A stretch of 49,302 nt of DNA, from the sequence record NZ_CP102504.1; one strand, given 5' to 3'. Position 1 is the stretch's first letter, and each line of letters starts with the position of its first letter. Shown here one piece after another: positions 16,794-36,647 of this stretch. Origin of the DNA: a plasmid. The notes beneath the pieces were generated by a model. It did not search any database. It was not told the DNA's origin and worked only from the letters and a program-made list of their open reading frames with translations. The position numbers and the translations under genes are program-made.

Positions 16794-17455
16794 TGTTCTG
16801 GAACCGAAATAAGAAAGAAAAAGCCGCTGCCGGCAATGAAAAAAATCGCTTCGATCACCTGCTTTCGGTGGCCGAAAAATTACCCGTTAAGGCGCTACCT
16901 GATCTCATTCGCGCCATCGTGCGGCCAGTACAGAGTGATTTCTTGCTGGCGGTAGCCGAGGAAGGGACTGATGCCCGCCCGGATATGACCCCGCAGGAGT
17001 TCTTCTTTGAAGGGCTTATCCAGGTGCAATCTTACGAGAAGATGAAAGAGGGTGAACTGGACGGCGCTGATTATCCGTTGTCGCTGGCAAGTGAAATGGT
17101 GCTGCCGTGGCCCTGGAGCCTGACACGCTATATCGATAACGTTTCGCACATTGGAACCCATAAGGGCAGGCCGTGGAAGCAGGATAAAATCAACCACTAT
17201 GTTGACTTGTGGTTGCCCTGGCGCATTGGCTTTGTGCGCGGTGGCAACCATTCCATAACGGCGGGCATTCTGGCCGGAGAAGGGACCGTGATACCGGATC
17301 ACGTTTACGATATGTCCTACCTTTTTGAGCTGGTCCGAACGGACGGTAATCACTGGTTCGTTGACGGCCAGAAGGTTGAGGCGGTGAAATCCGGGCGGTC
17401 AGCGGCTGTTTTCGAAATTGGCCGTTTACTTACGGAAGGAGCAAAAAATGGGTGA
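16790..17455 (+). CDS. Hypothetical protein translationally coupled to the relaxase gene (ATGA overlap)
   Basis: 221 aa; ATG overlaps the traI stop. Confidence 0.5.
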   Translation: MMFWNRNKKEKAAAGNEKNRFDHLLSVAEKLPVKALPDLIRAIVRPVQSDFLLAVAEEGTDARPDMTPQEFFFEGLIQVQSYEKMKEGELDGADYPLSLASEMVLPWPWSLTRYIDNVSHIGTHKGRPWKQDKINHYVDLWLPWRIGFVRGGNHSITAGILAGEGTVIPDHVYDMSYLFELVRTDGNHWFVDGQKVEAVKSGRSAAVFEIGRLLTEGAKNG

Positions 17456-17783
17456 GCAAATTACTAACGCGGAGTGGGAAAAAATCTCACCTGATAATTT
17501 TGAAACAGCCTCTTTGTTGCGAGCTGTTGATGCTATTGATGATTTACGCGGGGATTTTAATGATGGCGAGTATTCAGCGCCGCCGCAAATCAGAACTGAT
17601 TTACTCAGGCTTCATGAGATAGCAATGGCAGTGATTAACGAAGGTTCACGTAGCCGGGTTTCAGCATTGTTCGAGCTGGCGAGTGACCTGGACGAACAAA
17701 TATCCCATCTGGTAAATCGGCTGGATGAAGTGCAGGACACGCTATCTCAGCTAATGGAGTTGTATCCAGAAAGCCTTTACTAG
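17448..17783 (+). CDS. Small acidic helical protein paired with 16790-17455; its last residues and stop codon are created by the downstream insertion
   Basis: ORF 17418-17783; GGAG RBS before ATG 17448. The TAG stop at 17781-17783 uses the first G of the inserted element. The reconstructed pre-insertion C-terminus would read ...PLLR*. Confidence 0.45.
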   Translation: MGEQITNAEWEKISPDNFETASLLRAVDAIDDLRGDFNDGEYSAPPQIRTDLLRLHEIAMAVINEGSRSRVSALFELASDLDEQISHLVNRLDEVQDTLSQLMELYPESLY

Positions 17784-17842
17784 GGGTCCGTTTGGGAAAC
17801 GGACAATATTGTACGGCAAGCCTGTTTTTTGAACAGACCAAA

Positions 17843-18046
17843 TCATCGCAGTAGGGTACGCCCTTTGTAGGTGCCGTCTTCGATGTGAGAAAGAGCGTCC
17901 AGCGATACCAGGCCCGAGAACAGCGTGAACTGCCGCAATGAGCTTTTGTATGCGTGGGTAACTATACCGCGCACTTCACGCGCGGTGCTCGGTTTTGAGG
18001 CCGAAAATTGCAGGATCTCAAAGACGTGGTGTAGGGCTAGTGCCAT
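17843..18046 (-). CDS. Small hypothetical ORF, last gene of the cargo operon
   Basis: 67 aa. AGGAC-like RBS. Its 3' end runs into the left IR. Confidence 0.25.
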   Translation of the reverse strand: MALALHHVFEILQFSASKPSTAREVRGIVTHAYKSSLRQFTLFSGLVSLDALSHIEDGTYKGRTLLR

Positions 18047-18088
18047 GGGGCGTCCTTAAAATAAAGCCCCATAGCATGAGCAGTGTCG

Positions 18089-18496
18089 TTAGTCGTTAAA
18101 CTCGCCATCTCGCAGTTGGCGATTGCCTTCAACAATTTCCCACGCACGATTTAACCCTTCACGCATCAGATCGAAAGTACAGTCGCGGTCGTTAGAATAG
18201 GCACCGACAAAAATGATGTATTCCATTTCAGGTTCGCCGAACTCAGGCGAGCAGCCAAAGTTATGGAAAGCCGCCTGCCATTTGCCATTGTTCTCATTCG
18301 GCATGTGGAAAAGCTGCATTGGACGCTCATTAGGTGAGAATTCTACAAAGCTCGCTGAACTACCTGCGGATAAGCCTACTCTGGAATGCCCATCAAAAAA
18401 GTAATTATGGGCACATCTGATACCTTCCACATAGATCACCCGCCCATCTGGCAGCTTTTTCAGGACCAGGTACACTTCACGACGCTGAATACTCAT
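18089..18496 (-). CDS. Hypothetical cytoplasmic protein (cargo)
   Basis: 135 aa; no motif recognised. Confidence 0.45.
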   Translation of the reverse strand: MSIQRREVYLVLKKLPDGRVIYVEGIRCAHNYFFDGHSRVGLSAGSSASFVEFSPNERPMQLFHMPNENNGKWQAAFHNFGCSPEFGEPEMEYIIFVGAYSNDRDCTFDLMREGLNRAWEIVEGNRQLRDGEFND

Positions 18497-18567
18497 TTTT
18501 ATTCCTGTAGTTATGGGTAGCAGTGGAGAGTAAGAATGCCCCCAGCCGGTGCCAAGGCCAAAGAACT

Positions 18568-19110
18568 TTAGCCAGCCAGGGAAAGGGCTTCTGCGATGGC
18601 TCGGTTGAACTCGGGGATCGCCTCATCGTAAGACATTCCGCCGCAGGGATGCTTGACGCAAGCCCATGTTACCGGCAGTTCCGGTAAGTGATCCCACATC
18701 TGATAGCCCAACACCAAAATGACATCGGGCCTCAGCTCGGCCACCACTTCTTCAAGCACAGCAGCTGCATCACGCCACATAGCACGCGTGGGACGTATAC
18801 GGCCAGCATCGCCCACAAACTCCTGAACGTAGTTGTAGAAGGCTACATGCTGCCAGGCTTCACGCCGTTCCTCTGCGGTCGGCTCGTCAGTTGTGCCTCG
18901 TAGCAGATTGGTGGCTATCGTGAAAAAACGAAGCCCTGGCTGGAAAGCATGCTCGTTAATAACGTGCTGGGTAAAGTCAGGGGCGTAGTCTTCCGGTTCA
19001 CCATAGTGGGACTCACCCAACACCATAACGCGGACGCCGTAGCGGCTTGAGTGATAATGGTCACCCACCCAAGGCTGAAATTTCACGCTGGAATTAGTTG
19101 CTGTTTGCAT
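18568..19110 (-). CDS. Uracil-DNA-glycosylase-superfamily-like protein (family-4-like motifs, no Fe-S cysteines)
   Basis: VRVMVLGESHYGEPEDY parallels the family-4 UDG motif A (lMIVGEGPGEEED). ILVLGYQMW parallels the central beta-strand-LG. VKHPCGGMS parallels the HPS/HPA motif B. 180 aa. Confidence 0.4.
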   Translation of the reverse strand: MQTATNSSVKFQPWVGDHYHSSRYGVRVMVLGESHYGEPEDYAPDFTQHVINEHAFQPGLRFFTIATNLLRGTTDEPTAEERREAWQHVAFYNYVQEFVGDAGRIRPTRAMWRDAAAVLEEVVAELRPDVILVLGYQMWDHLPELPVTWACVKHPCGGMSYDEAIPEFNRAIAEALSLAG

Positions 19111-19543
19111 ACGTTACATTCTCACACTTTGCATCACTGATGGGCATGGACGCATTATAAATATCCTCAAGTGCCAACGTTACCTCGCTTTTGCGCAAGA
19201 TGGCGTCCCGCAGCATCGTCAATCGGAAGTTAGAGCCTTTCCAGTAATACTCTTTGTACTTGTCATCTGCGACGAAACCGCCTTCTCGATGGCGTTCATA
19301 CACGATAGGTGGCATGCCCCCTTTGTCGGACGGGTGAAGCTCCAGCCAACGCTCATATTTTCCGTTCTCGTAGATTGTCAGCCGCTGCGCTGGGTCGGTC
19401 AACTTACCCCCGTCCAGCACCCACCGGCACATCATTGACGCTATTTCTTTTGCTGCGGGATCTATGGTTGATGGGGTGCCAGCATTAGCCTGGTAGGCCA
19501 TAAGAAACGCCGCGGACATAATGAGTGTGTGGCGTAGTTTCAT
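19094..19543 (-). CDS. Secreted/periplasmic protein with a Sec signal peptide (cargo)
   Basis: MKLRHTLIMSAAFLMAYQANA|GT signal peptide. 149 aa. Overlaps the next gene by 17 nt. Confidence 0.5.
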   Translation of the reverse strand: MKLRHTLIMSAAFLMAYQANAGTPSTIDPAAKEIASMMCRWVLDGGKLTDPAQRLTIYENGKYERWLELHPSDKGGMPPIVYERHREGGFVADDKYKEYYWKGSNFRLTMLRDAILRKSEVTLALEDIYNASMPISDAKCENVTYANSN

Positions 19544-19553
19544 GAGAGATCCC

Positions 19554-20093
19554 TTAGTTCAGATTGCATCCAATGCGGAAGGCATTGCCGATTTCAGTGT
19601 ATTCAGCACGGCTTGCGCCCGTGAGCTTAGTGGCTTCACTGCTGAAGTGCGTATTGTCGCGGGTGCATTTTTCTGGCGTGGATTGCGCGCCTTTGAGGCA
19701 CATAGAGTACGCAACAGACGGATTAGCGAACTGGGTACGCTGGGCGTAGCCTTCGCACACAGCAGTTGCACGGGCCTGCTTCTGGCGAGCGGTCATCGGT
19801 TTGATTGCCTTACTATTGGCAGCCTTCAGCTTATAGCAGCTCAGATTACGCGAGCGGGCAGCTGCCTCTAGGGCTTTTGAGCGGCTAAGATTGTCGTTGT
19901 ATTCAGGATGGCTGGATGGGTTAACGTTCAGGCTCGGCTGTATCGCGTCAGATGCCTGGCAAAGTTGCTGATCGCTGTATCTGGCAATCTCCGCTGCCTC
20001 TATCGCGGCTTTGTCTGGCTGCGGGGCTTTGGGTGCGGGAGTAGCGCATCCTGCTAATGCCAGCGCCAATGAGGCGGCTAATAGTCGTTTCAT
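19554..20093 (-). CDS. Lipoprotein, first gene of the cargo operon
   Basis: MKRLLAASLALALAGC lipobox; 179 aa; several Cys in the mature part. The upstream region 20100-20300 carries spaced TATCGC direct repeats. Confidence 0.55.
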   Translation of the reverse strand: MKRLLAASLALALAGCATPAPKAPQPDKAAIEAAEIARYSDQQLCQASDAIQPSLNVNPSSHPEYNDNLSRSKALEAAARSRNLSCYKLKAANSKAIKPMTARQKQARATAVCEGYAQRTQFANPSVAYSMCLKGAQSTPEKCTRDNTHFSSEATKLTGASRAEYTEIGNAFRIGCNLN

Positions 20094-20471
20094 GGGTTCG
20101 AGTGTCCTGTATGCAAGTTGTAGAAGGGATCAGTTTGGAGATCGGAAATTATTGTACGTTCAGCGCGGTATTTAACCACTAATACCCGTAACGGATTGAT
20201 TTAGAGCCAGTGGCTATCGCTTTTAAATTATCGCCTAATCAGTATCGCATTTAGGTTATCCGATTAGCCAAAAACCGCGGAAAACGGCGTATAGCGCGGG
20301 AGTTCACCCTACTGCGATGATTTGGCCTGTTCAAAAAACAGGCTTACCGTACAATATTGTCCGTTTCCCAAACGGCCCCCTACTACGATGATATTGAAGG
20401 CGATGAGGAATAACGGAAGATCAAAGATCGTTGATCGATCCTCTGAAGATCCTGTACTCTCTTGCTCAGAA

Positions 20472-20502
20472 ACGAAAAAACCACCCGGCAAGGTGGTTTT
20501 TT
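20472..20502. terminator. Bidirectional rho-independent terminator; probably the original terminator of the traI-orf-orf operon before the insertion
   Basis: aaaaaaccacccggcaaggtggtttttt: a perfect stem flanked by A6 and T6. Confidence 0.65.
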
Positions 20503-21265
20503 CGAAGGTGATAAGAGCGTCAACTCTTTGCACCTGGTAACTGAATCCGAAGCAGGGAGAACAGTCACCGTTAAATTCAAATGTAGTGTAGCAGTCGTCA
20601 TGGCTGCAATTCAAGTCCCATCTCCCTGCTCGAATGACGTTACCGCATTGGCTGTTACCAATGGCGGCGATTTGCCGCGCCTGACGAACTGGAAATCGTG
20701 TGTTTGTCATAGTCAGGCGTAACGGCAGCGGGAGACGGGGAGTCTGGTTAAAACCCGCAGCGTTGGAGCGAACTGTCTAAGTCGAGCCGAGAACTTTAAG
20801 CGTGAGCTATGAGAAAGCGCCACGTTGCCCGAATGGGCTAAAGGCGGTCAGGTTTCGGTAAACGATATGACAGGAACACAGGACGTAACCAGGGGGAGCG
20901 ATGCCAACGAAAGGCGGCAGATCTCTAAGCTGTGTCGGGTTTCGCCTACTTCTGACTTGTAGCTTTTTTTTGAAGCTCGTCAGGAGGGGCGGAGCCTTTG
21001 GAAAAAGGCGACTTACGCCGCCTTTCATGCTTTTATCGCTCATAAATCGGTATTAGTAGCAGGACTACAACGGACATAGATTGAAGTCCTGTTATGGCAA
21101 AATGCATCCATCTATAGGAACTTGAACGATCTTTAGTCTCGTACACACCTCTTATCATTATCGGCTTTTGCATTAACATGATTATCAAAATACCGAGCAT
21201 ATTTGTAATGAAAGAGGTAAAAGCGGGTATACGGGGTCTGACGCTCAGTGGAACGAAAACTCACG

Positions 21266-24200
21266 TTAAGCAACGTTTTCTGCCTCTGACGCCTCTTTTA
21301 ATGGTCTCAGATGTCCTTTGGTCACCAGTTCTGCCAGCGTGAAGGAATAATGGCCGAGCATATTGATATGTCCGTGGCAAAGCGGGGAGAGGCGTGCGAT
21401 ATCTTCATCATTCAGTGTTTCACCCTGCGCCCGGAGATGATCCAGGGCTGCCTGCATATAAATAGTGTTCCATAACACGACGGCGTTAGTGACCAGCCCC
21501 AGTGTGCCCAGTTGATCTTCCTGACCGTCGGTATATCGTTTTCTTATCTCACCTTTTTGACCGTGACAGATGGCTCTGGCAACGGCATGGCGACTTTCTC
21601 CCCGATTAAGCTGGGTCAGAATGCGCCGGCGGTAATCTTCATCATCAATATAATTAAGCAGATACAGCGTTTTGTTGATGCGCCCCACTTCAATGATTGC
21701 CTGAGTCAGTCCGGAAGGACGTTCACTTTTCAGCAATGAACGGACCAGCACTGAAACCTGTACTTTGCCCAGCTTCAGGGAGCCAGCGGTCCGGATCATT
21801 TCGTCCCACTGAAGGACTATTTTTCGGGGATCTGATTGCCCTCTGGCAATATCATTCAGCACGCCATAGTCGGCATCATGGTCCATTCGCCAGAAAACCG
21901 AAGCACCGGCATCAGCCAGGCGTGGAGAAAACTGGTATCCCAGCAGCCAGAAAAGGCCAAAGACAAGTTCGCTGGCACCTGCTGTATCGGTCATAATTTC
22001 GGTTGGATTCAGCCCGGTCTCCTGTTCCAGAAGACCTTCCAGCACAAAGATAGAGTCCCTCAGCGTCCCCGGTATAACGATGCCATGAAAGCCGGAATAC
22101 TGATCGGACACAAAGTTGTACCAGGTGATCCCTCTGTTATTACCAAAGTATTTGCGGTTCGGTCCGGCATTGATTGTTCTGACTGGCGTAACAAAGCGCA
22201 TTCCATCTGCAGATGCCACTTCTCCTCCACCCCATATCTGTGCCAGTGGCAGCGTTGCCTGAAAATCAACCAGTCTGGCATTAGCGCTGGTGATAGTTTC
22301 AGCCCGCAGATAGTTCGCTTTTGTCCAGTTCAGCCGGTGTCGGGTCAGTGCAGGAACATTTGATCTGATCAGTGGTTCCAGACCGATATTGCAGGCTTCA
22401 GCCATCAGCACGGCGCTGATGCTGACGGGCAGATCATCAACTCTGGCACTGGCTTCACTAGCATGGAAAAACTCATCAGCAAATCCGGTATGGGCGTTAA
22501 TTTCGAGCAGCAACTCCGTTAAATCCACCGGAGGGAGTAGATCACTGATCATTTTGCTCAGTCGTTTCAGACTGTCCGGCTCATCAAGACTGGCGAGGGG
22601 AGAAATTGTCAACCGGGGCTTCGGGCCAGAAACATCGAGTTCGACAGCCTCATTTTCGCAAAGACGTGCAGCAACCTGTCTGTAACGACTATCAAGCTGA
22701 TGACCCAGAGATTTTATTGCTTCCTGCGGGTCTGTCGGGTGCCCCAAAGAACGATAAACCTTAATCCGGTTTGCCTGCCAGTCAGCACCCTGTAGTAATC
22801 TTGCACGAGGATCTCCCCACCGGTTACTGCCGGTAACGTAGACATCCCTCCGCCTCAGACTATCCTGCAGTTTACTGAGAAAGCAGAGCGTGTATCCCCT
22901 GCGGGTGATATGTTTTTCCTTGTTAATCACCAGCCGTTTCCATGACCGACTGATAATTTCCGTTGGTGCGTCGTCAAAAAACTGCCGCCGTGAGCTGAAC
23001 TCCCGGCTGAGGTAGTCACAGGCATTCAGAGTGGTAACCCCGGCAGGTGCGGATGAAAATTTAACGGTATTCAGCAGATGGGGCAGGAAACGACGAACGC
23101 GCCCGTACTGCTCCACCATTTCTTCATGAAAATTATCGTCTGAGGGCCGGGCAATTTCACGGACAAGCGTGATGATTTCAGCCAGCTTTTGCCTTGGGAT
23201 GTAGCTGAACACCTCAGCACGAATCGATTCGTCCGGTGTTTCTTCTTTCAGCAGGTACGAACATGCGCTGGCGAGCGCCAATGCAGATTTATCCAGATCC
23301 TTCAGCGAGCGGAGCCGTTTTTTCTGCCCAATCTTTCTGGCGTCACGGATGATAACGGCCAGCATGGCGTCCAGAACGTCCAATGCATCATCCAGCGCCA
23401 GCGTTTCCCATGCAAGGACAAAGGCAACCAGAACCGCCATCCTTTTCTGCGGTGACATCCTGGCAATATTGAACACCGAAGTCATACCAGCATAACGTGC
23501 GAGATTTTTCAGGCGCACAGCCGGGAGTGTACTCAGGTTTTCAGCATGCAGGCCAAAATCGTTCAGAGTTTTCCAGCGTTCAATTGCTTCATTAAACGCC
23601 GGACCACTGATGGTCACAGGGCCCTTTTTCAGTGATTCCAGTAAAGACAGGCGGCTGCAATCAGTTGGCCCCAGCAGCATCTCCAGCTGTGAACGCTGTT
23701 CGGCTGACGGTATCAGTGCCAGTTTGTTCCACAGGCGCAACGTCGCCTTTTCCCTTACCTCTGAAATCAACCGGGTCAGCGTAGTGGCTCCGGGGAGAAT
23801 AATACGATGTTGCATAAGCCACCCTGTCGCCAGATCGAAAAGCAGGCCAGGACGTTCGTTGCTTATCCAGCTCCGGGTATATAAAAGACGGGTAAGGCGA
23901 AATGTCCAGGGCCAGGCAAATTCACGATACTGATAGTGCTGACGTATCAGCGCTGCATGCTCACGGCGGGTATTTTCCCTCTGACCGTATTCTGCAAGAA
24001 CGGTGATATCACGAATCCCGAGCTGTCTGGCGGTAAAATGCCGGACGCCGGAAGGAATATGATTCATATCGGTGAGGAAGGTGCCCAGAAAACGGACACA
24101 TCCAATTTGCAGGGCAATGCCCAGACGGTTGTGATCACCTCTGCTTTTTCCGATAAATTCCTTGTCTGCTTCATCAAGGTGAAAATATCGTGCCAGCTGA

Positions 24201-24271
24201 AGCTCATCCGGTTCACCGGTGAATCTGCCATAGCTTTCAGTCTGCTCAGTGGTCAGAAAGTCAACGGGCAT
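21266..24271 (-). CDS. tnpA: Tn3 transposase
   Basis: 1001 aa; MPVDFLTTEQTESYGRFTGEPDELQLARYFHLDEADKEF... recognised as Tn3 TnpA. Confidence 0.95.
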   Translation of the reverse strand: MPVDFLTTEQTESYGRFTGEPDELQLARYFHLDEADKEFIGKSRGDHNRLGIALQIGCVRFLGTFLTDMNHIPSGVRHFTARQLGIRDITVLAEYGQRENTRREHAALIRQHYQYREFAWPWTFRLTRLLYTRSWISNERPGLLFDLATGWLMQHRIILPGATTLTRLISEVREKATLRLWNKLALIPSAEQRSQLEMLLGPTDCSRLSLLESLKKGPVTISGPAFNEAIERWKTLNDFGLHAENLSTLPAVRLKNLARYAGMTSVFNIARMSPQKRMAVLVAFVLAWETLALDDALDVLDAMLAVIIRDARKIGQKKRLRSLKDLDKSALALASACSYLLKEETPDESIRAEVFSYIPRQKLAEIITLVREIARPSDDNFHEEMVEQYGRVRRFLPHLLNTVKFSSAPAGVTTLNACDYLSREFSSRRQFFDDAPTEIISRSWKRLVINKEKHITRRGYTLCFLSKLQDSLRRRDVYVTGSNRWGDPRARLLQGADWQANRIKVYRSLGHPTDPQEAIKSLGHQLDSRYRQVAARLCENEAVELDVSGPKPRLTISPLASLDEPDSLKRLSKMISDLLPPVDLTELLLEINAHTGFADEFFHASEASARVDDLPVSISAVLMAEACNIGLEPLIRSNVPALTRHRLNWTKANYLRAETITSANARLVDFQATLPLAQIWGGGEVASADGMRFVTPVRTINAGPNRKYFGNNRGITWYNFVSDQYSGFHGIVIPGTLRDSIFVLEGLLEQETGLNPTEIMTDTAGASELVFGLFWLLGYQFSPRLADAGASVFWRMDHDADYGVLNDIARGQSDPRKIVLQWDEMIRTAGSLKLGKVQVSVLVRSLLKSERPSGLTQAIIEVGRINKTLYLLNYIDDEDYRRRILTQLNRGESRHAVARAICHGQKGEIRKRYTDGQEDQLGTLGLVTNAVVLWNTIYMQAALDHLRAQGETLNDEDIARLSPLCHGHINMLGHYSFTLAELVTKGHLRPLKEASEAENVA

Positions 24272-24991
<720 letters not shown>

Positions 24992-25009
24992 TACGCCTAT
25001 TTTTATAGG

Positions 25010-26089
25010 TGTCTGGACTCGTGGGATCATGTACCCATGCGTAGCTGGCCGCTCTTCAAGGCCAGACACGTTTTGCGTACACTGTTCCAATCCGACTCTT
25101 CACTGGCAACTCGATGACCCAGGCACTGCACAGCCAAGCCCGTACTACCCACCTGATCCGTGAGGAAATCAGGAACTCGACGCTCCCGCAGGCCGAACTG
25201 GCCAGGATGTACAACGTCACCCGCCAAACCATCCGAAAGTGGCAAAACCGCGAGTCTCCTGAAGACAAGTCGCATGCGCCGAACAAGATGTACACGACGC
25301 TCACGCCCGAGCAGGAGCTCATCGTGGTGGAGCTGCGCAAGACGTTGCTGCTGCCCACGGACGACCTGCTGGCGGTCACGCGCGAGTTCATCAATCCAGC
25401 CGTCTCGCGTGCCGGCCTGGGACGTTGCCTGCGCCGCCACGGTGTCTCGGATCTACGTAACCTGGTCGAGCAGGAAGGCACTGCGCCCGCCACGAAAAAG
25501 ACCTTCAAGGACTACGAGCCGGGCTTTGTGCACATCGACATCAAGTACCTGCCGCAGATGCCCGACGAGACGGCAAGGCGCTATCTCTTCGTTGCCATCG
25601 ACCGTGCTACGCGCTGGGTCTTCATCGAGCTCTATGCCGACCAGACCGATGGCAGCAGTGGCGACTTCCTCAACAAAGTCCAGCAAGCCTGTCCCGTCAA
25701 GATCGTCAAGCTTCTGACCGACAACGGCAGCCAGTTCACCGACCGCTTCACGGCTGGCGGCAAGAAGAAGGAACCCAGCGGCACACACGTGTTCGACCGC
25801 CTGTGCAAGCAGCTCGGCATCGAGCACCGGCTCATCCCGCCTCGTCATCCGCAGACCAACGGCATGGTGGAGCGCTTCAACGGTCGTATCAGCGACATCG
25901 TCAACCAGACCCGTTTTGGTTCAGCTGCCGAACTGGAATCGACGCTGCGCAATTACGTCAAGATCTACAACCACAGCATTCCGCAACGCGCGCTCCAACA
26001 CAAAACACCCGTTCAGGCGCTCAAGGAATGGCATGAAAAACGCCCTGAATTGTTCAGGAAACGCGTGTATAACCAGCCGGGTCTTGACA
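25010..26089 (+). mobile_element. IS481-family IS (ISKpn27/ISKpn8-like) inserted at the start of the Tn3 bla promoter region, with a 6-bp TSD TATAGG
   Basis: Ends TGTCTGGACTCG... and ...CGGGTCTTGACA are imperfect IRs. TATAGG lies at 25004-25009 and 26090-26095. The Tn3 sequence tttttatagg|ttaatgtcatgataataatg is interrupted exactly here. Confidence 0.7.
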
Positions 26090-26094
26090 TATAG
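25114..26094 (+). CDS. tnpA: IS481-family (ISKpn27-like) transposase
   Basis: 326 aa with an N-terminal HTH (ARMYNVTRQTIRKWQ). Always found upstream of blaKPC-2 in this type of context. The stop codon uses flanking bases. Confidence 0.85.
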   Translation: MTQALHSQARTTHLIREEIRNSTLPQAELARMYNVTRQTIRKWQNRESPEDKSHAPNKMYTTLTPEQELIVVELRKTLLLPTDDLLAVTREFINPAVSRAGLGRCLRRHGVSDLRNLVEQEGTAPATKKTFKDYEPGFVHIDIKYLPQMPDETARRYLFVAIDRATRWVFIELYADQTDGSSGDFLNKVQQACPVKIVKLLTDNGSQFTDRFTAGGKKKEPSGTHVFDRLCKQLGIEHRLIPPRHPQTNGMVERFNGRISDIVNQTRFGSAAELESTLRNYVKIYNHSIPQRALQHKTPVQALKEWHEKRPELFRKRVYNQPGLDI

Positions 26095-26245
26095 GTTAAT
26101 GTCATGATAATAATGATCTCATGACCAAAATCCCTTAACGTGAGTTTTCGTTCCACTGAGCGTCAGACCCCTAATCCCAGCTGTAGCGGCCTGATTACAT
26201 CCGGCCGCTACACCTAGCTCCACCTTCAAACAAGGAATATCGTTG

Positions 26246-27127
26246 ATGTCACTGTATCGCCGTCTAGTTCTGCTGTCTTGTCTCTCATGGCCGCTGGCTG
26301 GCTTTTCTGCCACCGCGCTGACCAACCTCGTCGCGGAACCATTCGCTAAACTCGAACAGGACTTTGGCGGCTCCATCGGTGTGTACGCGATGGATACCGG
26401 CTCAGGCGCAACTGTAAGTTACCGCGCTGAGGAGCGCTTCCCACTGTGCAGCTCATTCAAGGGCTTTCTTGCTGCCGCTGTGCTGGCTCGCAGCCAGCAG
26501 CAGGCCGGCTTGCTGGACACACCCATCCGTTACGGCAAAAATGCGCTGGTTCCGTGGTCACCCATCTCGGAAAAATATCTGACAACAGGCATGACGGTGG
26601 CGGAGCTGTCCGCGGCCGCCGTGCAATACAGTGATAACGCCGCCGCCAATTTGTTGCTGAAGGAGTTGGGCGGCCCGGCCGGGCTGACGGCCTTCATGCG
26701 CTCTATCGGCGATACCACGTTCCGTCTGGACCGCTGGGAGCTGGAGCTGAACTCCGCCATCCCAGGCGATGCGCGCGATACCTCATCGCCGCGCGCCGTG
26801 ACGGAAAGCTTACAAAAACTGACACTGGGCTCTGCACTGGCTGCGCCGCAGCGGCAGCAGTTTGTTGATTGGCTAAAGGGAAACACGACCGGCAACCACC
26901 GCATCCGCGCGGCGGTGCCGGCAGACTGGGCAGTCGGAGACAAAACCGGAACCTGCGGAGTGTATGGCACGGCAAATGACTATGCCGTCGTCTGGCCCAC
27001 TGGGCGCGCACCTATTGTGTTGGCCGTCTACACCCGGGCGCCTAACAAGGATGACAAGCACAGCGAGGCCGTCATCGCCGCTGCGGCTAGACTCGCGCTC
27101 GAGGGATTGGGCGTCAACGGGCAGTAA
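26246..27127 (+). CDS. blaKPC-2: KPC class A carbapenemase, KPC-2 allele by eye (His272 present, not the KPC-3 Tyr)
   Basis: [91 protein letters not shown]...KDDKHSEAV...GVNGQ. The upstream sequence ctagctccaccttcaaacaaggaatatcgttgatg is the usual Tn4401-derived blaKPC upstream region. Confidence 0.93.
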
Positions 27128-27249
27128 GGCTCTGAAAATCATCTATTGGCCCACCACCGCCGCCCTTGCGGGCGGCATGGATTACCAACCACTGTCACAT
27201 TTAGGCTAGGAGTCTGCGCGGCAGAGCCGTGTGACCGGTTTTCTGTAGA

Positions 27250-28440
27250 GCACTGACGATGGCGGCGGCGCTCTCTGCAATTGGCAAGGCGTCGGCGCCA
27301 AGGATACCAATCTTGCGGCGCGCGGCGTGTTATGACGACTGGGGTGCATTTGAGCCGCCCCATTTAACCTTCGCCCTCACAGATACGCCATTCGCCTCAG
27401 ATTTAGCGCCATGCAGACGAGCTTCCACTCGGCTTGCACCTTGTCCAGGCCCCTCATGCTGAACTGACGCAATCCCATCACCGCCTTGATCCAACCATTC
27501 GGAGCCTCCACGATCGACTTGCGCCGGCGGTAAGCTGCATCGCCTTGCTCCGTTTTCAATTTCGCCGCAATCGCCGCCGTATGCGGATGGGTCTTGGCAT
27601 TGACCTTGGCATCTTCACGTCCCTCGCGGCCGAGGGCAACGATGACATCGCCGTGGTGATCGGCGACCTTTGCCAGAACAGCCTCACTACGGAATCCCGC
27701 ATCCGCCAGCGTCTGGGCCGGCATTTCTCCGGTGTTGGCCTGAACTGCTGCCAGCATGCCCAGCAGCGCCTGACTGTCCGCGGCGCAGTTGGTCAACTCC
27801 GCCGCCACGATGATCTGGTGCTCGGCATCGACCGCTGTGTACCCGTTGTAGCTCTGCTCGGAGCCACCACCGGCGTGTTTCATGATCCGGCTGTCCGGAT
27901 CGGTGAAGCTTTCCTGATCACGGTCATCCGGCACACCAAACTCGCGTTTGTACGAGCCACCGCCCTTGTCCGAGCCATCCGGATGGCGAGGCCGGCGGCC
28001 ATCGTCTTCGCTGCGCCCCCGGGCCTGGTCCGCTTCACGCTGGCGCGCTTCCAGGCGCGCCTTTGCCGCCTGGATCGCCTCCAGGCGCTTCTCGCGGCGA
28101 GAAATCTCGGCAGGAATGTCCAGCTCCGGCTCGTTACGCTCCTGGTCGTCGGTAGCCTTGGCGCGATCAAGCAGCGCCTTGATCTCGCAATGCAATTCGT
28201 CCTCGGCCGGCTTCATGCGCTTATAGCTCATCGCCTTGTGGTCGCCATGTTTGGCGGCTTCGTATTCAGGTTCTTTAGAGAGATCCTTTAGATCGCCGTT
28301 CCTCACTACTGCCGGGAAGTCTCCCCAGGGAGCACGTTCGGCCTTATGTTCGGTCATGGTTTCAATCCCGGTCAGCGTCCCATATAGCCCCGAAACCTGC
28401 CAGGTGGGCCAAGATAGACCAGGCACCATAAGCAATAGGG
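27250..28440 (-). mobile_element. Truncated ISKpn6 (IS1182 family) remnant downstream of blaKPC
   Basis: A transposase ORF fragment on the minus strand, truncated at its 5' end next to korC. Boundaries approximate. Confidence 0.5.
27377..28435 (-). pseudogene. tnpA: 5'-truncated ISKpn6 transposase
   Basis: 352-aa ORF. Full ISKpn6 TnpA is longer (439 aa, recalled from memory). Typical blaKPC-deltaISKpn6 arrangement. Confidence 0.6.
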
Positions 28441-28673
28441 CTAGGGTTGGTTTTGCTCACCCAACGCCTGAAGGTTCGGGTTCCCTTTCCGCTGCCTCTC
28501 TCACCAGGCAAACCAACGAGATCAGCGACATCAACGCCACTGAGAGGCTTACTAAGCCCTTTTCGTTGCCTAATCAGCTCCAACACCTCTTTGATTTCAT
28601 CGGCGGTTGGAGCCTGCCAATCTTCAGCGAACGGCCTAAGCGTTTCAGGTCTAATCATGCGATAAATCCTCAA
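28362..28673 (-). CDS. korC: KorC-like transcriptional repressor
   Basis: 103-aa ORF with an HTH-like segment. Occupies the korC position of the korC-klcA module seen downstream of blaKPC-2 in non-Tn4401 contexts. Length and identity not verified. Confidence 0.5.
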   Translation of the reverse strand: MRIYRMIRPETLRPFAEDWQAPTADEIKEVLELIRQRKGLSKPLSGVDVADLVGLPGERGSGKGTRTFRRWVSKTNPSPIAYGAWSILAHLAGFGAIWDADRD

Positions 28674-28691
28674 ATAGCCCCGGTCAATGCC

Positions 28692-28859
28692 GGGGCTTTT
28701 TTATCAATGGGTAACGGTCGCGGCGGCCTCCCGATACGCCTTCAGTTCAATCAAGAGCAAGCCAAGCTCCCGCATCTTCATGCGCGGCATATGAACGGGG
28801 CGGCGGGCCGTCAGAGCGTCGCCAATGTGTTTTGCAAGTGATACAATATCCGTATTCAT
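28692..28859 (-). CDS. Small hypothetical ORF between korC and klcA
   Basis: 55 codons from ATG 28859 (MNTDIVSLAKHIGDAL...); below the ORF-track cutoff. Confidence 0.25.
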
Positions 28860-28986
28860 CGCGTTTATCCTCAAATTGACCGGTGAAAGCCCCTGTGATT
28901 GGTTGCAGCCATACCAGGGGCACCATTTCTTTTTCTACCTATGCACCTCCTTTAAGAGCCCCGGCCATCACCGGGGCTTTCTGTTG

Positions 28987-29394
28987 CTAGTCTATTGCGG
29001 CCAAGATGGCCTCTTTTTCGTCATGCTCACAAGCCCAATCCCGCAAGCTGTGATACAGCCTTGAAAACCGCTCCTGGTCAGCGCCTTCTGTGTGAAATGA
29101 CAGATGGCTATAGAGGTAGAGGCAAGCGGTAATCCCGGCAGCATCGGCGCTCATTTGGCCACTAAAGTAGTTCATGGCCTCGATGTTCAGCATTTCATCA
29201 CGACGCCCAGGAGCCATATAAAAGCCGCCGTTCGACAGCTCCCACATAAGCCAATAAGCCCCGCGATACTCGCGGCAGAGCCCTTTCATTTGCTGGTAAA
29301 GCATCGACTCGAAAACCACATAGAAACGGCCTACATGGGGTCGGTTCCGGCTGAGGGCGAAATGACACCCTAAGCTTTCGGTTCCTTGGGCCAA
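28987..29394 (-). CDS. klcA: KlcA antirestriction protein (ArdB family); its last 58 bp overlap the IR and the end of the Tn5403-like element
   Basis: 135 aa; paralog of the ardB-like gene at 3444. Confidence 0.75.
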   Translation of the reverse strand: MAQGTESLGCHFALSRNRPHVGRFYVVFESMLYQQMKGLCREYRGAYWLMWELSNGGFYMAPGRRDEMLNIEAMNYFSGQMSADAAGITACLYLYSHLSFHTEGADQERFSRLYHSLRDWACEHDEKEAILAAID

Positions 29395-32267
29395 AGATAT
29401 TCGCCAGTCAGTAGAATGTGCGCCCAGCCCAATGGGGATATGTGGGGAAGAAATTCAGGGGGAACATCCAACCCTTCGTTCCGCCGCTCCGTGACGGCAT
29501 GACCAAGATGGACGGTATTCCAGTAAATGATCACCGCAGTCAATAAATTGAGCCCAGCGATTCGGTAGTGCTGCCCCTCTGTCGTGCGATCGCGAATTTC
29601 CCCCTGCCTCCCGATACGGAGCGCATTTTTGAGCGCATGGTGGGCCTCTCCCTTGTTAAGACCGATCTGAGCACGCCGCTGCATGTCCGTATCCAGGATC
29701 CACTCAATAATGAAAAGGGTCCGTTCAATACGACCAACTTCACGAAGCGCAACTGCAAGGTTGTTTTGTCGTGGGTAAGAAGCGAGCTTGCGCAGGAGTT
29801 GGCTGGGCCTGATTTTGCCAGCGGTCATCGTCGCGGCACAACGGAAAATATCAGGCCAGTTCGCAACGATAAGATCCTCCCGGGCTTTTCCACCTACCAA
29901 CTTGCGTAACTCCCTGGGGGTCGTATCGGGATTAAATACGTACAACCGCTTCGATGGCAGATCCCTGATTCGCAGAACGAGATTGTAGCCGAGCAGGCTA
30001 CTGGCTCCGAACAAATGGTCGGTGAATCCTGCTGTATCGGCATACTGTTCGCGAACATGGCGACCGACCTCGTTCATCAGTAGTCCATCGAGAATATACG
30101 GTGCCTCGCTCACGGTCGCCGGGATCGACTGACAAGCGAATGGCGCGAACTGGTCGCTTACGTGAGTATACGCTTTGAGGCCGGGAACAGAACCATATTT
30201 GGCATTGACCATGTTCATGGCTTCGCCATGCCGCGCTGTCGGGAAAAACTGACCATCGCTCGATGCTGACGTGCCCATCCCCCAGACGCGTGACATCGGC
30301 AGTTTACCCTGCGCGGCCACCACAATTGCCAATGCCTGGTTCATGGCTTCGCTTTCAACATGCCAGCGGGCAAGGCGTGAGAGCTGCCAGTAATCATGCG
30401 TGTTTGTAGCTTCCGCCATCTTACGCAGGCCCAGATTGAGCCCTTCAGCGAGCAGGACGTTGAGCAGACCGATCCGGTCGCGACATGGAGCCCCGGTTCT
30501 CAGATGGGTAAACGCATCTGTGAAACCAAGGGCTGCATCAACTTCAAGCAGCATGTCGGTAATCCGAACGGACGGCATTCGGCGATACAGATCCAGTATG
30601 AGTGCCTCGGCACCATCCGGCACGTCTGCTGTCAACCTGTCGATCCGCAACGTTCCATCTTCTATGCTACCGTGCGGAATAGTGCCGTTACGGGCAGCCC
30701 GGGCCAGCCGCTTAAGAGCGATCGTGAGTCGCGCCTTTCTGTCTGCCAGCCAATCCTGTGGGTTGGAAGGCACGGCCAGTTTTGCATTTTCCTGCGCCGC
30801 GATCATCGGCACCAGTACCTGCTTGAGGTCACCATAGCGGCGCGAATGAGCGAGCCAGACATCTCCGGAACGAAAAGCATCCCGGAGGTGAAAGAGTACA
30901 GCCACTTCCCAAAGACGGGTATCTCCTTTTTCCTGAGCTCGTAAATGACGGTTCCATTTGGAGCTGGGCCGCAGGAAACGCCTTTCTGGCGATGCAACAC
31001 CTTTCATCTCTCCGATCGACAAAGCTGCTGCTACCAATGGTCCGGCGACCGGCGCGGCTTCGAGCTTCAGACAGCGCAACATGCGGGGCGCATAACGACG
31101 AAAGCGATGGTATCCCTGCCCGACATATGCAAGAGGCTCATCGGCTAGCGTGTTGCTGAGTTGAGTCCCTGTCGCTACCAGTTGAGCAAGCCGGTCCCAT
31201 GCAACCGAACTGGCGACAGCCATCTCCAGCGGGGTTCCGTCACTGCGGGCCTCAAGCAACGAAGCTCCCAGCGCGGTGAAGGTACGGATCGTATCCGTGA
31301 GTGTGGCTTTAGAGCCGGAAATTGTTTCGTCATGCTGGCGCTTCGCTTCCCGCCAGGTTTTTCCTACGATCCTGTCATGGGTTTCGACTATGGCATCAGC
31401 AATCGCCGCTTCCCACTCCACAACACAGACGGCAAGGATCGCCCAGCGGCGGTCCGAAGTGATGTCACGCAAACCGTCGGTGAAGTAGCGTTCACCCTGC
31501 CGACGCAGCCGGGCAATGCGATGGGCAGGTATGCTGGCCAAAGCACTATGATTGATATTCAGGGTACGCAGAAATTCGAGCCTGTCGAGCAAACGGTTAG
31601 CAGCAGCCGAGTTGTTACCAACCTCGAAGTTGCGAAGCCAGATGAAACGACTGATATTGCCGGCGAGCATTTCACTCAGAAGTTTGTCCAGGTGATCGCG
31701 AACATCCGCTGTTAAATTTTCCGCAATCCGCGTTTCAATCCGCCGCTCAGCGGCGACCAGAGCATCCGCGCACAAGCGCTCGATTGTCGATACTGCGGGC
31801 AGAATGGTGGAAGTTTCCCGACACCGCACAATAAAACGATGAGCAAGATCCTCGTTTGATCTGGCATCTTCGGCCTGGCCGAAAGTCCACTCCCGCAGAT
31901 CACGGGCACCACGGCCCGTGAAGGTCTTGTAGCCGTAAATTTCGCGCAGCGTGTCCATGTGCTGCTGACGGGTTTGGCGCCGTGTGGCATAAGTGAGAAG
32001 CGCATCAGCCGGAACTCCAAGCTGAGCACCGACGAAGGAAAGGACTTCACGCGGGATCATCTCACCAGGAGCCAGTGCACGGCCCGGATATCGTAAGGCA
32101 CAAAGTTGCAGGGCAAAGCCAATCCTGTTTTCCGGTCTGCGGCGCTGCCTAATGTTTTCCAGGTCATCATCGCCCAGCGTGTAGAACTTCAGTAGCGACA
32201 GTTCGTCCGTGGGCAGATCGAACAGCGCTGCTCGCTGCCGTTCGGTGAAAATATGGCGTCGTGACAT
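29370..32267 (-). CDS. tnpA: Tn3-family transposase
   Basis: 965 aa; DDE transposase similar to the Tn3 TnpA at 21266-24271. Confidence 0.9.
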   Translation of the reverse strand: MSRRHIFTERQRAALFDLPTDELSLLKFYTLGDDDLENIRQRRRPENRIGFALQLCALRYPGRALAPGEMIPREVLSFVGAQLGVPADALLTYATRRQTRQQHMDTLREIYGYKTFTGRGARDLREWTFGQAEDARSNEDLAHRFIVRCRETSTILPAVSTIERLCADALVAAERRIETRIAENLTADVRDHLDKLLSEMLAGNISRFIWLRNFEVGNNSAAANRLLDRLEFLRTLNINHSALASIPAHRIARLRRQGERYFTDGLRDITSDRRWAILAVCVVEWEAAIADAIVETHDRIVGKTWREAKRQHDETISGSKATLTDTIRTFTALGASLLEARSDGTPLEMAVASSVAWDRLAQLVATGTQLSNTLADEPLAYVGQGYHRFRRYAPRMLRCLKLEAAPVAGPLVAAALSIGEMKGVASPERRFLRPSSKWNRHLRAQEKGDTRLWEVAVLFHLRDAFRSGDVWLAHSRRYGDLKQVLVPMIAAQENAKLAVPSNPQDWLADRKARLTIALKRLARAARNGTIPHGSIEDGTLRIDRLTADVPDGAEALILDLYRRMPSVRITDMLLEVDAALGFTDAFTHLRTGAPCRDRIGLLNVLLAEGLNLGLRKMAEATNTHDYWQLSRLARWHVESEAMNQALAIVVAAQGKLPMSRVWGMGTSASSDGQFFPTARHGEAMNMVNAKYGSVPGLKAYTHVSDQFAPFACQSIPATVSEAPYILDGLLMNEVGRHVREQYADTAGFTDHLFGASSLLGYNLVLRIRDLPSKRLYVFNPDTTPRELRKLVGGKAREDLIVANWPDIFRCAATMTAGKIRPSQLLRKLASYPRQNNLAVALREVGRIERTLFIIEWILDTDMQRRAQIGLNKGEAHHALKNALRIGRQGEIRDRTTEGQHYRIAGLNLLTAVIIYWNTVHLGHAVTERRNEGLDVPPEFLPHISPLGWAHILLTGEYLWPKEPKA

Positions 32268-32361
32268 ACAAATTCGTCCCTTTTGAAGTATAGTCTGTTT
32301 TGGACAACAGCCAGCCCATATAAATCAGGGCGTTCCGATACAAAAATCCAGGAGGGTTCAA
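32268..32361. promoter_or_regulatory. res site / divergent promoter region of the Tn5403-like element
   Basis: Intergenic region between the divergent tnpA and tnpR. Confidence 0.45.
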
Positions 32362-32967
32362 TTGGGACATCGTGCCGCCATTTACTGCCGGGTTTCAACA
32401 GCGGATCAGTCTTGTGAACGCCAGGAATTTGATCTGCGAGCCTTCGCCGGCCGTGCCGGCTACGACGTGGTGGGAATATTTAAGGAAACAGGTTCAGGAA
32501 CTAAACTCGACCGGGCCGAGCGAAAGAAAGTCCTGGCGCTTGCCCAGTCCAGACAAATTGATGCAATCCTGGTCACTGAGCTTTCCCGGTGGGGGCGCTC
32601 GACGCTCGATCTGCTCAATACGCTACGTGAACTGGAGAACTGGAAGGTTTCCGTGATAGCCATGAATGGAATGGCGTTCGATCTTTCGTCGCCGTATGGA
32701 CGAATGCTGGCGACGTTTCTTTCCGGCATTGCGGAGTTTGAGCGGGATCTCATCAGCGAGCGGGTCAAGTCAGGCCTTGCTGTTGCGAAGGCACGTGGTA
32801 AGAGGCTTGGTCGTCAGGCCGGAGTGCGACCAAAATCAGACCGACTTTTGCCTAAGGTGGTTGCGATGAGGGCCGAGGGACGCAGCTATCGCTGGATCGC
32901 ACGCGAGCTCGGTATCAGCAAGAATACCGTCGCTGACATCGTGCAACGACACAGAGCTAACGCTTAG
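32362..32967 (+). CDS. tnpR: Serine-recombinase resolvase (TTG start after a GGAGGG RBS)
   Basis: 201 aa; (M)GHRAAIYCRVSTADQ... catalytic serine motif; C-terminal HTH (RWIARELGISKNTVADIV). Confidence 0.85.
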   Translation: MGHRAAIYCRVSTADQSCERQEFDLRAFAGRAGYDVVGIFKETGSGTKLDRAERKKVLALAQSRQIDAILVTELSRWGRSTLDLLNTLRELENWKVSVIAMNGMAFDLSSPYGRMLATFLSGIAEFERDLISERVKSGLAVAKARGKRLGRQAGVRPKSDRLLPKVVAMRAEGRSYRWIARELGISKNTVADIVQRHRANA

Positions 32968-33001
32968 GGTGTCATTTCGCCCTCAGCCGGAACCGACCCC
33001 C

Positions 33002-33198
33002 CGTTGGCCTTCCTGTAAAGGATCTGGGTCCAGCGAGCCTTGCGGCGGAACTTCACGCGATCGGCAATGGCGCTGACTACGTCCGCACCCACGCGCCTGG
33101 AGATCTGCGAAGCGCAATCACCTTCTCGGAAACCCTCGCGAAATTTCGCAGTCGCGACGCCAGAGACCGAGGGTTAGATCATGCCTAGCATTCACCTT
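33002..33198 (+). pseudogene. sul1: 3' fragment of sul1 (last 66 codons) truncated by the Tn5403-like element
   Basis: In-frame translation ends ...AKFRSRDARDRGLDHA* (stop 33196-33198), the C-terminus of Sul1. Typical 3'-CS/ISCR1 junction. Confidence 0.7.
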
Positions 33199-33219
33199 CC
33201 GGCCGCCCGCTAAATATCT

Positions 33220-36647
<3,428 letters not shown>

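Follow-up and report, generated by a model that had tools for sequence, protein, structure and literature searches.

An element with Tn3-family termini and a target duplication

The DNA analysed here is a 49,302-nucleotide stretch of the plasmid record NZ_CP102504.1 (the window), in which a 2,598-bp element occupies positions 17783-20380. It is bounded by a left 75-bp arm at 17783..17857 (plus strand) and a right 75-bp arm at 20306..20380 (minus strand), with five minus-strand open reading frames (ORFs) between them. A repeat search and a direct comparison both reproduced the inverted termini described in a first-pass annotation: the arms are mutual reverse complements with 3 mismatches, and a 72/75 match is not explicable by chance within a 4-kb region. 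The outer 38 bp, located at 17783-17820 and, inverted, at 20343-20380, start with GGGG and run GGGGTCCG...GTACGGCAAG, which is the usual layout of a Tn3-family inverted repeat (IR; about 38 bp, GGGG...ACG..AAG, with an ACGnnAAG-like end). Both this layout and a 35/38 match to the IRs of an autonomous Tn3-family transposon bear out the family assignment made earlier. The 5-mer TACTA was read directly outside both ends, at 17778..17782 and 20381..20385, again as annotated, and has the length and AT-rich composition of a Tn3-family target duplication.

No transposase or resolvase was present between the arms in the ORF list, where the longest ORF is 180 aa, and a Pfam search detected no transposase or resolvase domain among these ORFs, in agreement with the first-pass annotation. 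The 2.6-kb element does not encode the approximately 1000-aa DDE transposase TnpA and is therefore non-autonomous.

A search of PLSDB for the empty site, which the first-pass annotation had proposed, identified the uninterrupted target. When the flanks were joined via a single TACTA, the full 800 bp had perfect matches (100% identity) in no fewer than 22 IncN plasmids. The insertion is therefore a genuine Tn3-family insertion, and the same empty sites excluded the arms as a fixed feature of the IncN backbone. Together with a second site flanked by TATCA, the data confirm that 17783-20380 is a 2,598-bp non-autonomous Tn3-family transposon, inserted by transposition with a 5-bp duplication.

The insertion truncated an IncN backbone gene (17418..17783, plus strand) downstream of the DUF6710 and MobF relaxase genes. 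Its present stop codon, TAG, consists of the TA of the duplicated target and the first G of the IR, and nine C-terminal residues (YDDIEGDEE) were lost. The coding sequence is 336 bp in NZ_CP151772, a plasmid with the same insertion, versus 363 bp (27 bp longer) in an uninterrupted plasmid. The earlier claim that the last codons and the stop had been rewritten was thus correct, but the restored end ...PLLR was not: after excision of the element in silico, translation of the joined site ended in ...ESLYYDDIEGDEE and a stop, that is, ...LYYDDIEGDEE.

A MITESen1-like right end

The right end of the element contains a complete miniature Tn3-derived element (TIME). This 255-bp segment (20126..20380, minus strand) is non-coding, lies within the 50-500 bp range of TIMEs and has Tn3-type IRs at both ends, with the caveat that the tip of the inner IR is GGGA instead of GGGG. 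MITESen1, a 256-bp TIME, is listed in ISfinder and by Gomi and Yano (2026, PMC13367494). Compared with the MITESen1 reference (256 bp, Table S2 of PMC13367494), the segment was approximately 81% identical from end to end (207/256 in a global alignment, with the A-type end outermost; blastn, 82% over 228 bp). Calling MITESen1 takes at least 95% identity and at least 95% coverage, so the segment is a relative within the family and not a copy. Relatives of the 255 bp at 70-85% identity were found in approximately 3,100 plasmid records.

The inner IR (20126..20163, plus strand), absent from the first-pass annotation, was detected by the repeat search as a degenerate third copy in the same orientation as the left arm. 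It is of a second type (B-type), matching the right IR (IRR) of MITESen1 and the IRs of an autonomous transposon in NZ_CP151772. The element is accordingly laid out as a solo, inverted 75-bp A end on the left, the cargo, and a complete TIME on the right made up of B-type IR, internal region and A-type IR. The TIME has no duplication of its own: GTAGA precedes 20126 and TACTA follows 20380, so the duplication belongs to the 2.6-kb unit. We infer that the GGGA tip disables the internal IR, leaving the outer pair to be used. The left boundary shares just 75 bp with the right TIME, and the unit is thus not bounded by two complete TIMEs.

Autonomous relatives and candidate helper transposons

Two autonomous transposons carry related IRs. 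The first, at 104103-109336 of NZ_CP080108 (L006), encodes TauE, LysR, tnpR and tnpA (WP_000124024) and is flanked by the duplication AGTAG; its IRs match those of the element at 35/38. The second, at 29050-35950 of NZ_CP151772 (L001), encodes tnpA (WP_000124025), tnpR and frmRAB and is flanked by AAATA; its IRs are of the MITESen1 type and match at 29/38. NZ_CP151772 therefore carries both a MITESen1-type autonomous transposon and the identical element insertion. The two TnpAs are 76% identical and the two resolvases 96%, and the module of tnpR, tnpA and the resolution site (res) between them had matches in approximately 1,300 plasmid records. These comparisons point to the unnamed transposon group of WP_000124024 and WP_000124025 as the best helper candidates, and MITESen1 itself can now be linked with a defined set of autonomous transposons and with a candidate res site.

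When the two transposons were aligned (L006 5227-9023 against L001 29073-32863), identity fell just beyond the ATGCGATA motif of the intergenic region. This drop fits a module exchange at res.

A Tn3-family transposase acts specifically on its own IRs or on close relatives of them. The first-pass annotation had named the TnpAs of Tn3 (21266-24271) and Tn5403 (29370-32267) in the window as possible movers. Both tnpA genes appear to be intact and are no more than 12 kb away from the element, and the GGGG...ACG..AAG layout is common to Tn3-family elements. Their IRs, however, match those of the element at only 19/38 and 22/38, against 35/38 for the NZ_CP080108 transposon, and their TnpAs are only 30% and 35% identical to WP_000124024. 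The same insertion is also found in NZ_CP151772, which has a different accessory region and a MITESen1-type transposon aboard. Mobilisation by the Tn3 or Tn5403 transposase of the window is consequently very improbable, and both were rejected as likely helpers on the poor IR match and the divergence of their TnpAs.

Putative res site

Upstream of the cargo, four direct 14-bp repeats (three TATCGC and one TATCCG; 20215..20270, plus strand) precede GTATAGCGCGGGAGTTCACCCTACTGCGATGA. Both autonomous transposons have a colinear counterpart of this stretch between tnpR and tnpA (local alignment score 23; 500 shuffles gave 9.2 +/- 1.3, maximum 15). When tnpR and tnpA diverge in a Tn3-family element, res sits in the intergenic region, and the TATCGC repeats are read on this ground as resolvase-binding subsites. 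The array would then represent the accessory binding sites of res. The repeats had been noticed earlier as a feature upstream of the cargo; four units at 14-bp spacing are indeed there, as part of a putative transposon res and not as a cargo-specific operator.

Alignment to the res regions of the two autonomous transposons placed a putative res site I, TATAGCGC - 14 bp - CTGCGATG, at 20290..20319 (plus strand), and the inner boundary of the right arm (20305/20306) falls beside its centre. Each 75-bp arm can be read as 20 bp of the tnpA-proximal part of res joined to the final 55 bp of the transposon. In the left arm, the 38-bp terminal IR (17783-17820) is followed by what remains of the tnpA 3' end, including a CCTGTTTTTTGAACAG hairpin, and then by 20 bp (ACCCTACTGCGATGATTTGG, on the opposite strand) that are the counterpart of the tnpA-proximal res part. 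In the autonomous relatives, the position of the CCTGTTTTTTGAACAG hairpin is that of the tnpA 3' end. On these alignments, the layout of the MITESen1 family would be "IR - res - IR", like that of IS101 and TIME244.

Cargo genes and their origin

The first-pass annotation described a five-gene cargo operon. The five minus-strand ORFs were recovered, and they represent four intact genes and one truncated remnant.

The lipoprotein, the 149-aa protein and the 180-aa protein are 71%, 80% and 86% identical, respectively, to proteins of a contiguous array in CP101078 (L012), a 75-kb Citrobacter portucalensis replicon with portal, DUF927 and AlpA genes that is phage-plasmid-like. The DNA homology to CP101078 extends up to the inner edge of the left arm, where it stops at 17855-17857. 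Sequence comparison thus shows the cargo to be derived from a phage-plasmid accessory gene array.

The remnant is a 67-aa ORF (17843..18046, minus strand). In tblastn and in the alignment to CP101078 (L012, 9205-9720), codons 1-64 correspond to the start of a gene for a 171-aa phage-plasmid protein (88% identity across the ORF; dN/dS 0.24), and the last 3 codons and the stop are supplied by the left arm. The next gene, at 18089..18496 (minus strand), encodes a 135-aa cytoplasmic protein (dN/dS 0.115) and stands in place of two other genes of the CP101078 array. Its family is restricted to Enterobacterales, where P1/P7-like phage-plasmids and the accessory slots of lambdoid prophages carry homologues, and it had no match in Pfam, NCBIfam, PADLOC or PHROGs. 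The 180-aa protein, encoded at 18568..19110 (minus strand), is described below. The gene at 19094..19543 (minus strand), whose stop overlaps the start of the 180-aa gene by 17 bp, encodes a secreted 149-aa protein that has a signal peptide and two invariant cysteines; its predicted structure is an eight-stranded beta-barrel, weakly similar to PliC-type lysozyme inhibitors. The remaining gene, at 19554..20093 (minus strand), encodes a 179-aa cysteine-rich lipoprotein (lipobox LAGC; dN/dS 0.18). Its family is tiny and orphan and occurs on phage-plasmid-sized and plasmid-sized contigs; on a P1-like contig, a homologue adjoins the DarA and DdrB genes. The 149-aa neighbour of a lipoprotein homologue in another locus (L027) was considered as a counterpart of the cargo protein and found to be unrelated. 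Across the four intact genes, dN/dS was 0.11-0.18, which indicates that they are real genes under purifying selection.

The cargo also bears on the origin of the element as a whole. In an autonomous transposon from which tnpA and tnpR had been deleted in place, the ORFs would be original passengers and not captured genes, and the passengers of the autonomous relatives do lie on the tnpR side of res in a cargo-like orientation (TauE and LysR in one, frmRAB in the other). The internal IR at 20126-20163, however, lies between res and the cargo and could not be created by deletion in situ, and the right 255 bp are colinear with the free-standing MITESen1. In addition, the left arm cuts the last gene of the cargo, and the cargo DNA is 80-92% identical to a phage-plasmid-like array with no IRs nearby. 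An origin by deletion in place is, on this evidence, barely credible, and a capture of the cargo is preferred.

Left junction

The left junction reads ...AAAGGGCGT/ACCCTACTGCGATG... (the slash marks the joint), and ACC is common to both parents as a 3-nt microhomology. The same core, GT/ACCC, is the junction in an element with unrelated cargo. This second transposase-less element of the same IR family, on pVR50B (NZ_CP011136; L035 2701-5075, also L034 1194-3575), carries an ArsR regulator and an FAD-dependent oxidoreductase, is flanked by an AATGT(T) duplication, and has its unrelated DNA joined to the A end at the identical base, ...GGATGGT/ACCCTATTGCGAT. The counterpart in the autonomous transposon is GGGGTGT/ACCC, a short dyad (GGGT-GT-ACCC) inside larger inverted TATnGCnT half-sites.

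A serine-resolvase crossover at res site I would be expected to leave junctions that recur next to the centre of a dyad, which favours capture by resolvase over random deletion. In such an event, res site I would have recombined with a look-alike core, GGGCGT/ACC, in the phage-plasmid gene and so produced the left junction. With three junctions as its basis, a resolvase-mediated capture at a pseudo-site is possible, at somewhat below even odds.

The left end might alternatively be what is left of a decayed composite, in which inverted full TIMEs once flanked the segment and the left copy then lost its inner 180 bp, and the 171-aa gene its 3' part, to one ordinary, non-site-specific deletion. 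Composites with inverted boundary TIMEs are documented, the left arm has res DNA joined to the tnpA 3' end in the manner specific to TIMEs and so derives from a TIME-like ancestor, and the ACC microhomology is compatible with illegitimate recombination. Independent random deletions should differ in their endpoints, however, and the junction nucleotide is identical in the unrelated ArsR/FAD-oxidoreductase element; the junction also adjoins the centre of the dyad taken as res site I. Decay by deletion is therefore rather unlikely. The resolvase crossover, if it took place, offers a testable path by which miniature elements gain cargo.

Predicted function of the cargo

When the five ORFs were searched against Pfam, PADLOC, NCBIfam and PHROGs, only a sub-threshold UDG match and signal-peptide noise were obtained. 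The UDG match concerned the 180-aa protein (PF03167, 16.4 bits compared with a cut-off of 24.3, E 0.0098), for which the first-pass annotation had suspected a UDG-superfamily relationship and asked for a structure prediction. AlphaFold2 (AF2) returned a model with a pLDDT of 95 and a pTM of 0.90. In Foldseek, the top matches were MUG, TDG, UdgX and family-4 UDG (E approximately 3e-5, probability 1.00, TM approximately 0.55), and viral UDG-like proteins were also matched. The modelled protein has the alpha/beta architecture of the UDG fold, and we are confident in predicting a UDG-superfamily fold, as had been suspected. A total of 357 homologues were found; in 44 that were aligned, G32-E33-S34-x-Y36, F91-x-N93 and H154 are invariant and P155 is nearly so. 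Conservation at the GESxY and HP positions is compatible with glycosylase activity.

Two more distant homologues of the UDG-fold protein, 56% identical (L008 3752-6561) and 70% identical (L015 6835-10034), were located beside genes for HNH_2 and RES-domain proteins and a GmrSD_N fragment. From their gene content, these neighbourhoods look like defence islands.

UDG-fold defence enzymes, Brig1 and Brig2, have been reported on mobile elements (10.1101/2025.10.29.685425). By analogy, our best guess, held with low confidence, is that the cargo acts in phage-host conflict: the UDG-fold glycosylase might attack modified phage DNA in the manner of Brig1 and Brig2, and the secreted lipoprotein and beta-barrel protein might mediate exclusion or inhibitor functions. 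The cargo may instead be unrelated to such conflict, with a repair, housekeeping or inactive UDG-fold protein and a secreted pair that serves the envelope or hitchhikes as DNA of no benefit to the plasmid. Consistent with this, the cargo has neither a PADLOC match nor a defence or anti-defence annotation, one 70%-identical homologue lies among housekeeping genes of an Aeromonas chromosome, and the three-gene cluster is conserved solely in close relatives and not around distant homologues. Against it stand the purifying selection on all four genes, the finding of homologues on P1-like phage-plasmids, within accessory slots of prophages and next to HNH, RES and GmrSD-like genes, and the precedent of UDG-fold defence enzymes on mobile elements. 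A cargo unrelated to phage conflict retains a sizeable chance, a little short of even. An uncharacterised UDG-fold family, in any case, moves among phage-plasmids, prophages and resistance plasmids.

Distribution and other copies

At 80% coverage or more, the 2,598-bp unit was present in 87 plasmids of PLSDB and, among 5426 complete E. coli genomes, in 60; 474 of the 483 matching places in E. coli were on plasmids. Copies in independent contexts are 98-99.6% identical. In NZ_CP083864 (L005), the unit lies within Tn5393-like sequence and is flanked by a perfect TATCA duplication. The most frequent context is between a type III methyltransferase gene and a helix-turn-helix (HTH) gene, followed by IS26, and pCF10-NDM has a fourth right-flank context. 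The whole unit is thus present at independent sites, two of them with direct repeats (TACTA and TATCA) and two further ones distinguished by their right flanks. The exact 38-bp IR had no match in GTDB species-representative genomes.

NZ_CP083864 also carries IS4321 inside the 149-aa cargo gene (L005 6579-7898), inserted at ATTTTCCGTTCTC, equivalent to approximately 19354-19360 of the window. The normal target of IS4321 is the terminal IR of Tn21-type transposons, and ATTTTCCGTTCTC resembles a portion of one. This plasmid also has qnrS2 between the element and the IncN flank. In CP066261 (L004, 8560-8600), the right terminus has been swapped for a true MITESen1-type end (...GGATATAGAGAATTATTGTACGG), which in its sequence indicates recombination among members of the TIME family.

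No name for the 2.6-kb element was found in the searchable literature by IR sequence, cargo accessions or transposon name, a scope that did not take in the 2021 paper by Pong and Hall in which MITESen1 was reportedly defined. Tn6952 (PMC8193513), considered as a candidate, is a different element. Despite its presence in 87 PLSDB plasmids and in approximately 1% of complete E. coli genomes, the element is annotated merely as "hypothetical proteins", and naming it would improve the annotation of IncN, IncX1 and IncF resistance plasmids.

Neighbouring backbone features

The window represents an IncN plasmid. NZ_CP151772, which is annotated with RepA, stb genes, a MobF relaxase and a DUF6710 gene, is 100% identical to it over the element and its flanks (17500-20700) and differs in its accessory region. 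To the right of the element, identical 38-bp Tn3-type IRs at 21233-21270 and 26134-26171 enclose a Tn3-type tnpA (21233-26171), followed at 26243-32267 by the ISKpn27 - blaKPC-2 - Tn5403 tnpA region, and the window is therefore a KPC-2 IncN plasmid.

Approximately 90 bp to the right of the insertion, the IncN backbone contains a full-length match to the Rfam family RNAI (RF00106, ColE1-type antisense RNA; 20472-20576, minus strand; 55.4 bits, gathering score 47). The hairpin at 20472-20502, annotated earlier as a bidirectional terminator, is real and forms the 3' terminator of this minus-strand RNA. The hundreds of small mobilizable plasmids among the matches to the empty-site query are probably due to this RNAI sequence.

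Two other IncN plasmids (L004 8609-8800 and L005 10960-11020) carry a Tn5403-type IR, GGGGTCGGTTCCGGCTGAGGGCGAAATGACACCCTAAGC, that adjoins the backbone only 13 bp from the TACTA site, equivalent to approximately 20394 of the window. These junctions suggest a hot spot for Tn3-family insertion at this position, downstream of the relaxase operon.

Interpretation

We consider it likely that the element consists of a MITESen1-like TIME and a solo A end enclosing phage-plasmid cargo, with TnpA supplied in trans. The outward-facing pair of A-type IRs would be the substrates for transposition; a cognate Tn3-family TnpA acting in trans would carry out replicative transposition, giving a cointegrate and the 5-bp TACTA duplication; and the cointegrate would be resolved at the res of the element by a cognate serine resolvase in trans, or by RecA. 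Movement in trans, the core of this explanation, is consistent with the sequence comparisons above, and indirect evidence for it is the co-occurrence of a family member with the element in NZ_CP151772. A more far-reaching version is unlikely as a whole: that MITESen1-family elements gain cargo via resolvase crossover at the core GGGxGT/ACCC, and that this one would thereby carry a phage-plasmid conflict module (a new family of UDG-fold glycosylases acting on phage DNA, a secreted lipoprotein and a beta-barrel protein) into resistance plasmids, spreading on a borrowed transposase.

Several observations weigh against this interpretation or parts of it. The window has no cognate transposase or resolvase gene for the element. 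Clean 5-bp duplications were seen at only two insertions, one of them with a documented empty site, and the most frequent copy has imperfect flanks (TAAAA and TTAAA). The putative res (20215-20319) is homologous to a tnpR-tnpA intergenic region that is itself biochemically uncharacterised in the autonomous relatives, and Gomi and Yano (PMC13367494) found no similarity of MITESen1 to the res sites of Tn3, Tn21 and Tn1721; the likeness reported here was missed because only those three sites were compared. The crossover at the left junction is deduced from three junctions with a 3-nt microhomology, with which ordinary deletion is compatible as well. A promoter scan upstream of the cargo gave only weak, 8/12 promoter-like matches, the profile of the UDG-like family had no match among PDB sequences, and the cargo proteins had none in PADLOC, NCBIfam and PHROGs, which leaves their defence role a guess.

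Comparison with known systems

Relative to the UDG superfamily, including Brig1 and Brig2, the 180-aa protein shares the fold, a motif-A-like GESxY, a motif-B-like HP and the mobile-element context. It differs in its sub-threshold Pfam score, the lack of a PDB relative detectable by sequence, and a TM of approximately 0.55, and is known here from its sequence and predicted fold.

The autonomous transposons of NZ_CP080108 and NZ_CP151772 resemble the element in their IRs (35/38 and 29/38), a T-rich stretch within the IR, homology in the TATCGC block and 5-bp duplications. They encode a 995-aa TnpA and a 213-aa serine resolvase, whereas the element encodes neither, and their passengers, TauE with LysR or frmRAB, are unlike its cargo. 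The survey of Gomi and Yano (PMC13367494) identified neither the parent transposon nor the res site of MITESen1. With MITESen1, the segment at 20126-20380 is colinear and has both IR types, the CCTGTTTTTTGAACAG hairpin and the TATCGC repeat block in common; it differs in its identity of approximately 81%, below the 95% used by Gomi and Yano, and in the GGGA tip of its internal IR. MITESen1 is also free-standing, whereas the TIME described here forms one end of a 2.6-kb unit.

The first-pass annotation held that non-autonomous Tn3 derivatives with protein-coding cargo are rarely described. They form an established class, comprising TIME-COMPs, TIME-MCR-5 and the mobile insertion cassettes of Xanthomonas; the kind of element is therefore already known, the 2.6-kb element itself appears unnamed, and nothing in the analysis overturns current understanding. 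TIME-MCR-5 and the Xanthomonas cassettes likewise have pairs of Tn3-family IRs, 5-bp direct repeats, passengers and mobilisation in trans, but belong to other IR and transposase lineages (Tn6452/TnAs-type and TnXax1-type) and carry other cargo. A TIME-COMP is a composite with a TIME at either boundary (Szuplewska et al., 2014, PMC4133298; Gomi & Yano, 2026, PMC13367494). Like TIME-COMPs, the element has no transposase, outward Tn3-type IRs, foreign genes and a 5-bp duplication, and occurs mainly on plasmids of Enterobacteriaceae. Unlike them, it has one complete TIME, its other boundary being a 75-bp half (a terminus and part of res), and its cargo consists of uncharacterised phage-plasmid genes and not of a resistance gene. 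The element thus behaves like a TIME-COMP or a mobile insertion cassette, short of the strict definition of a TIME-COMP.

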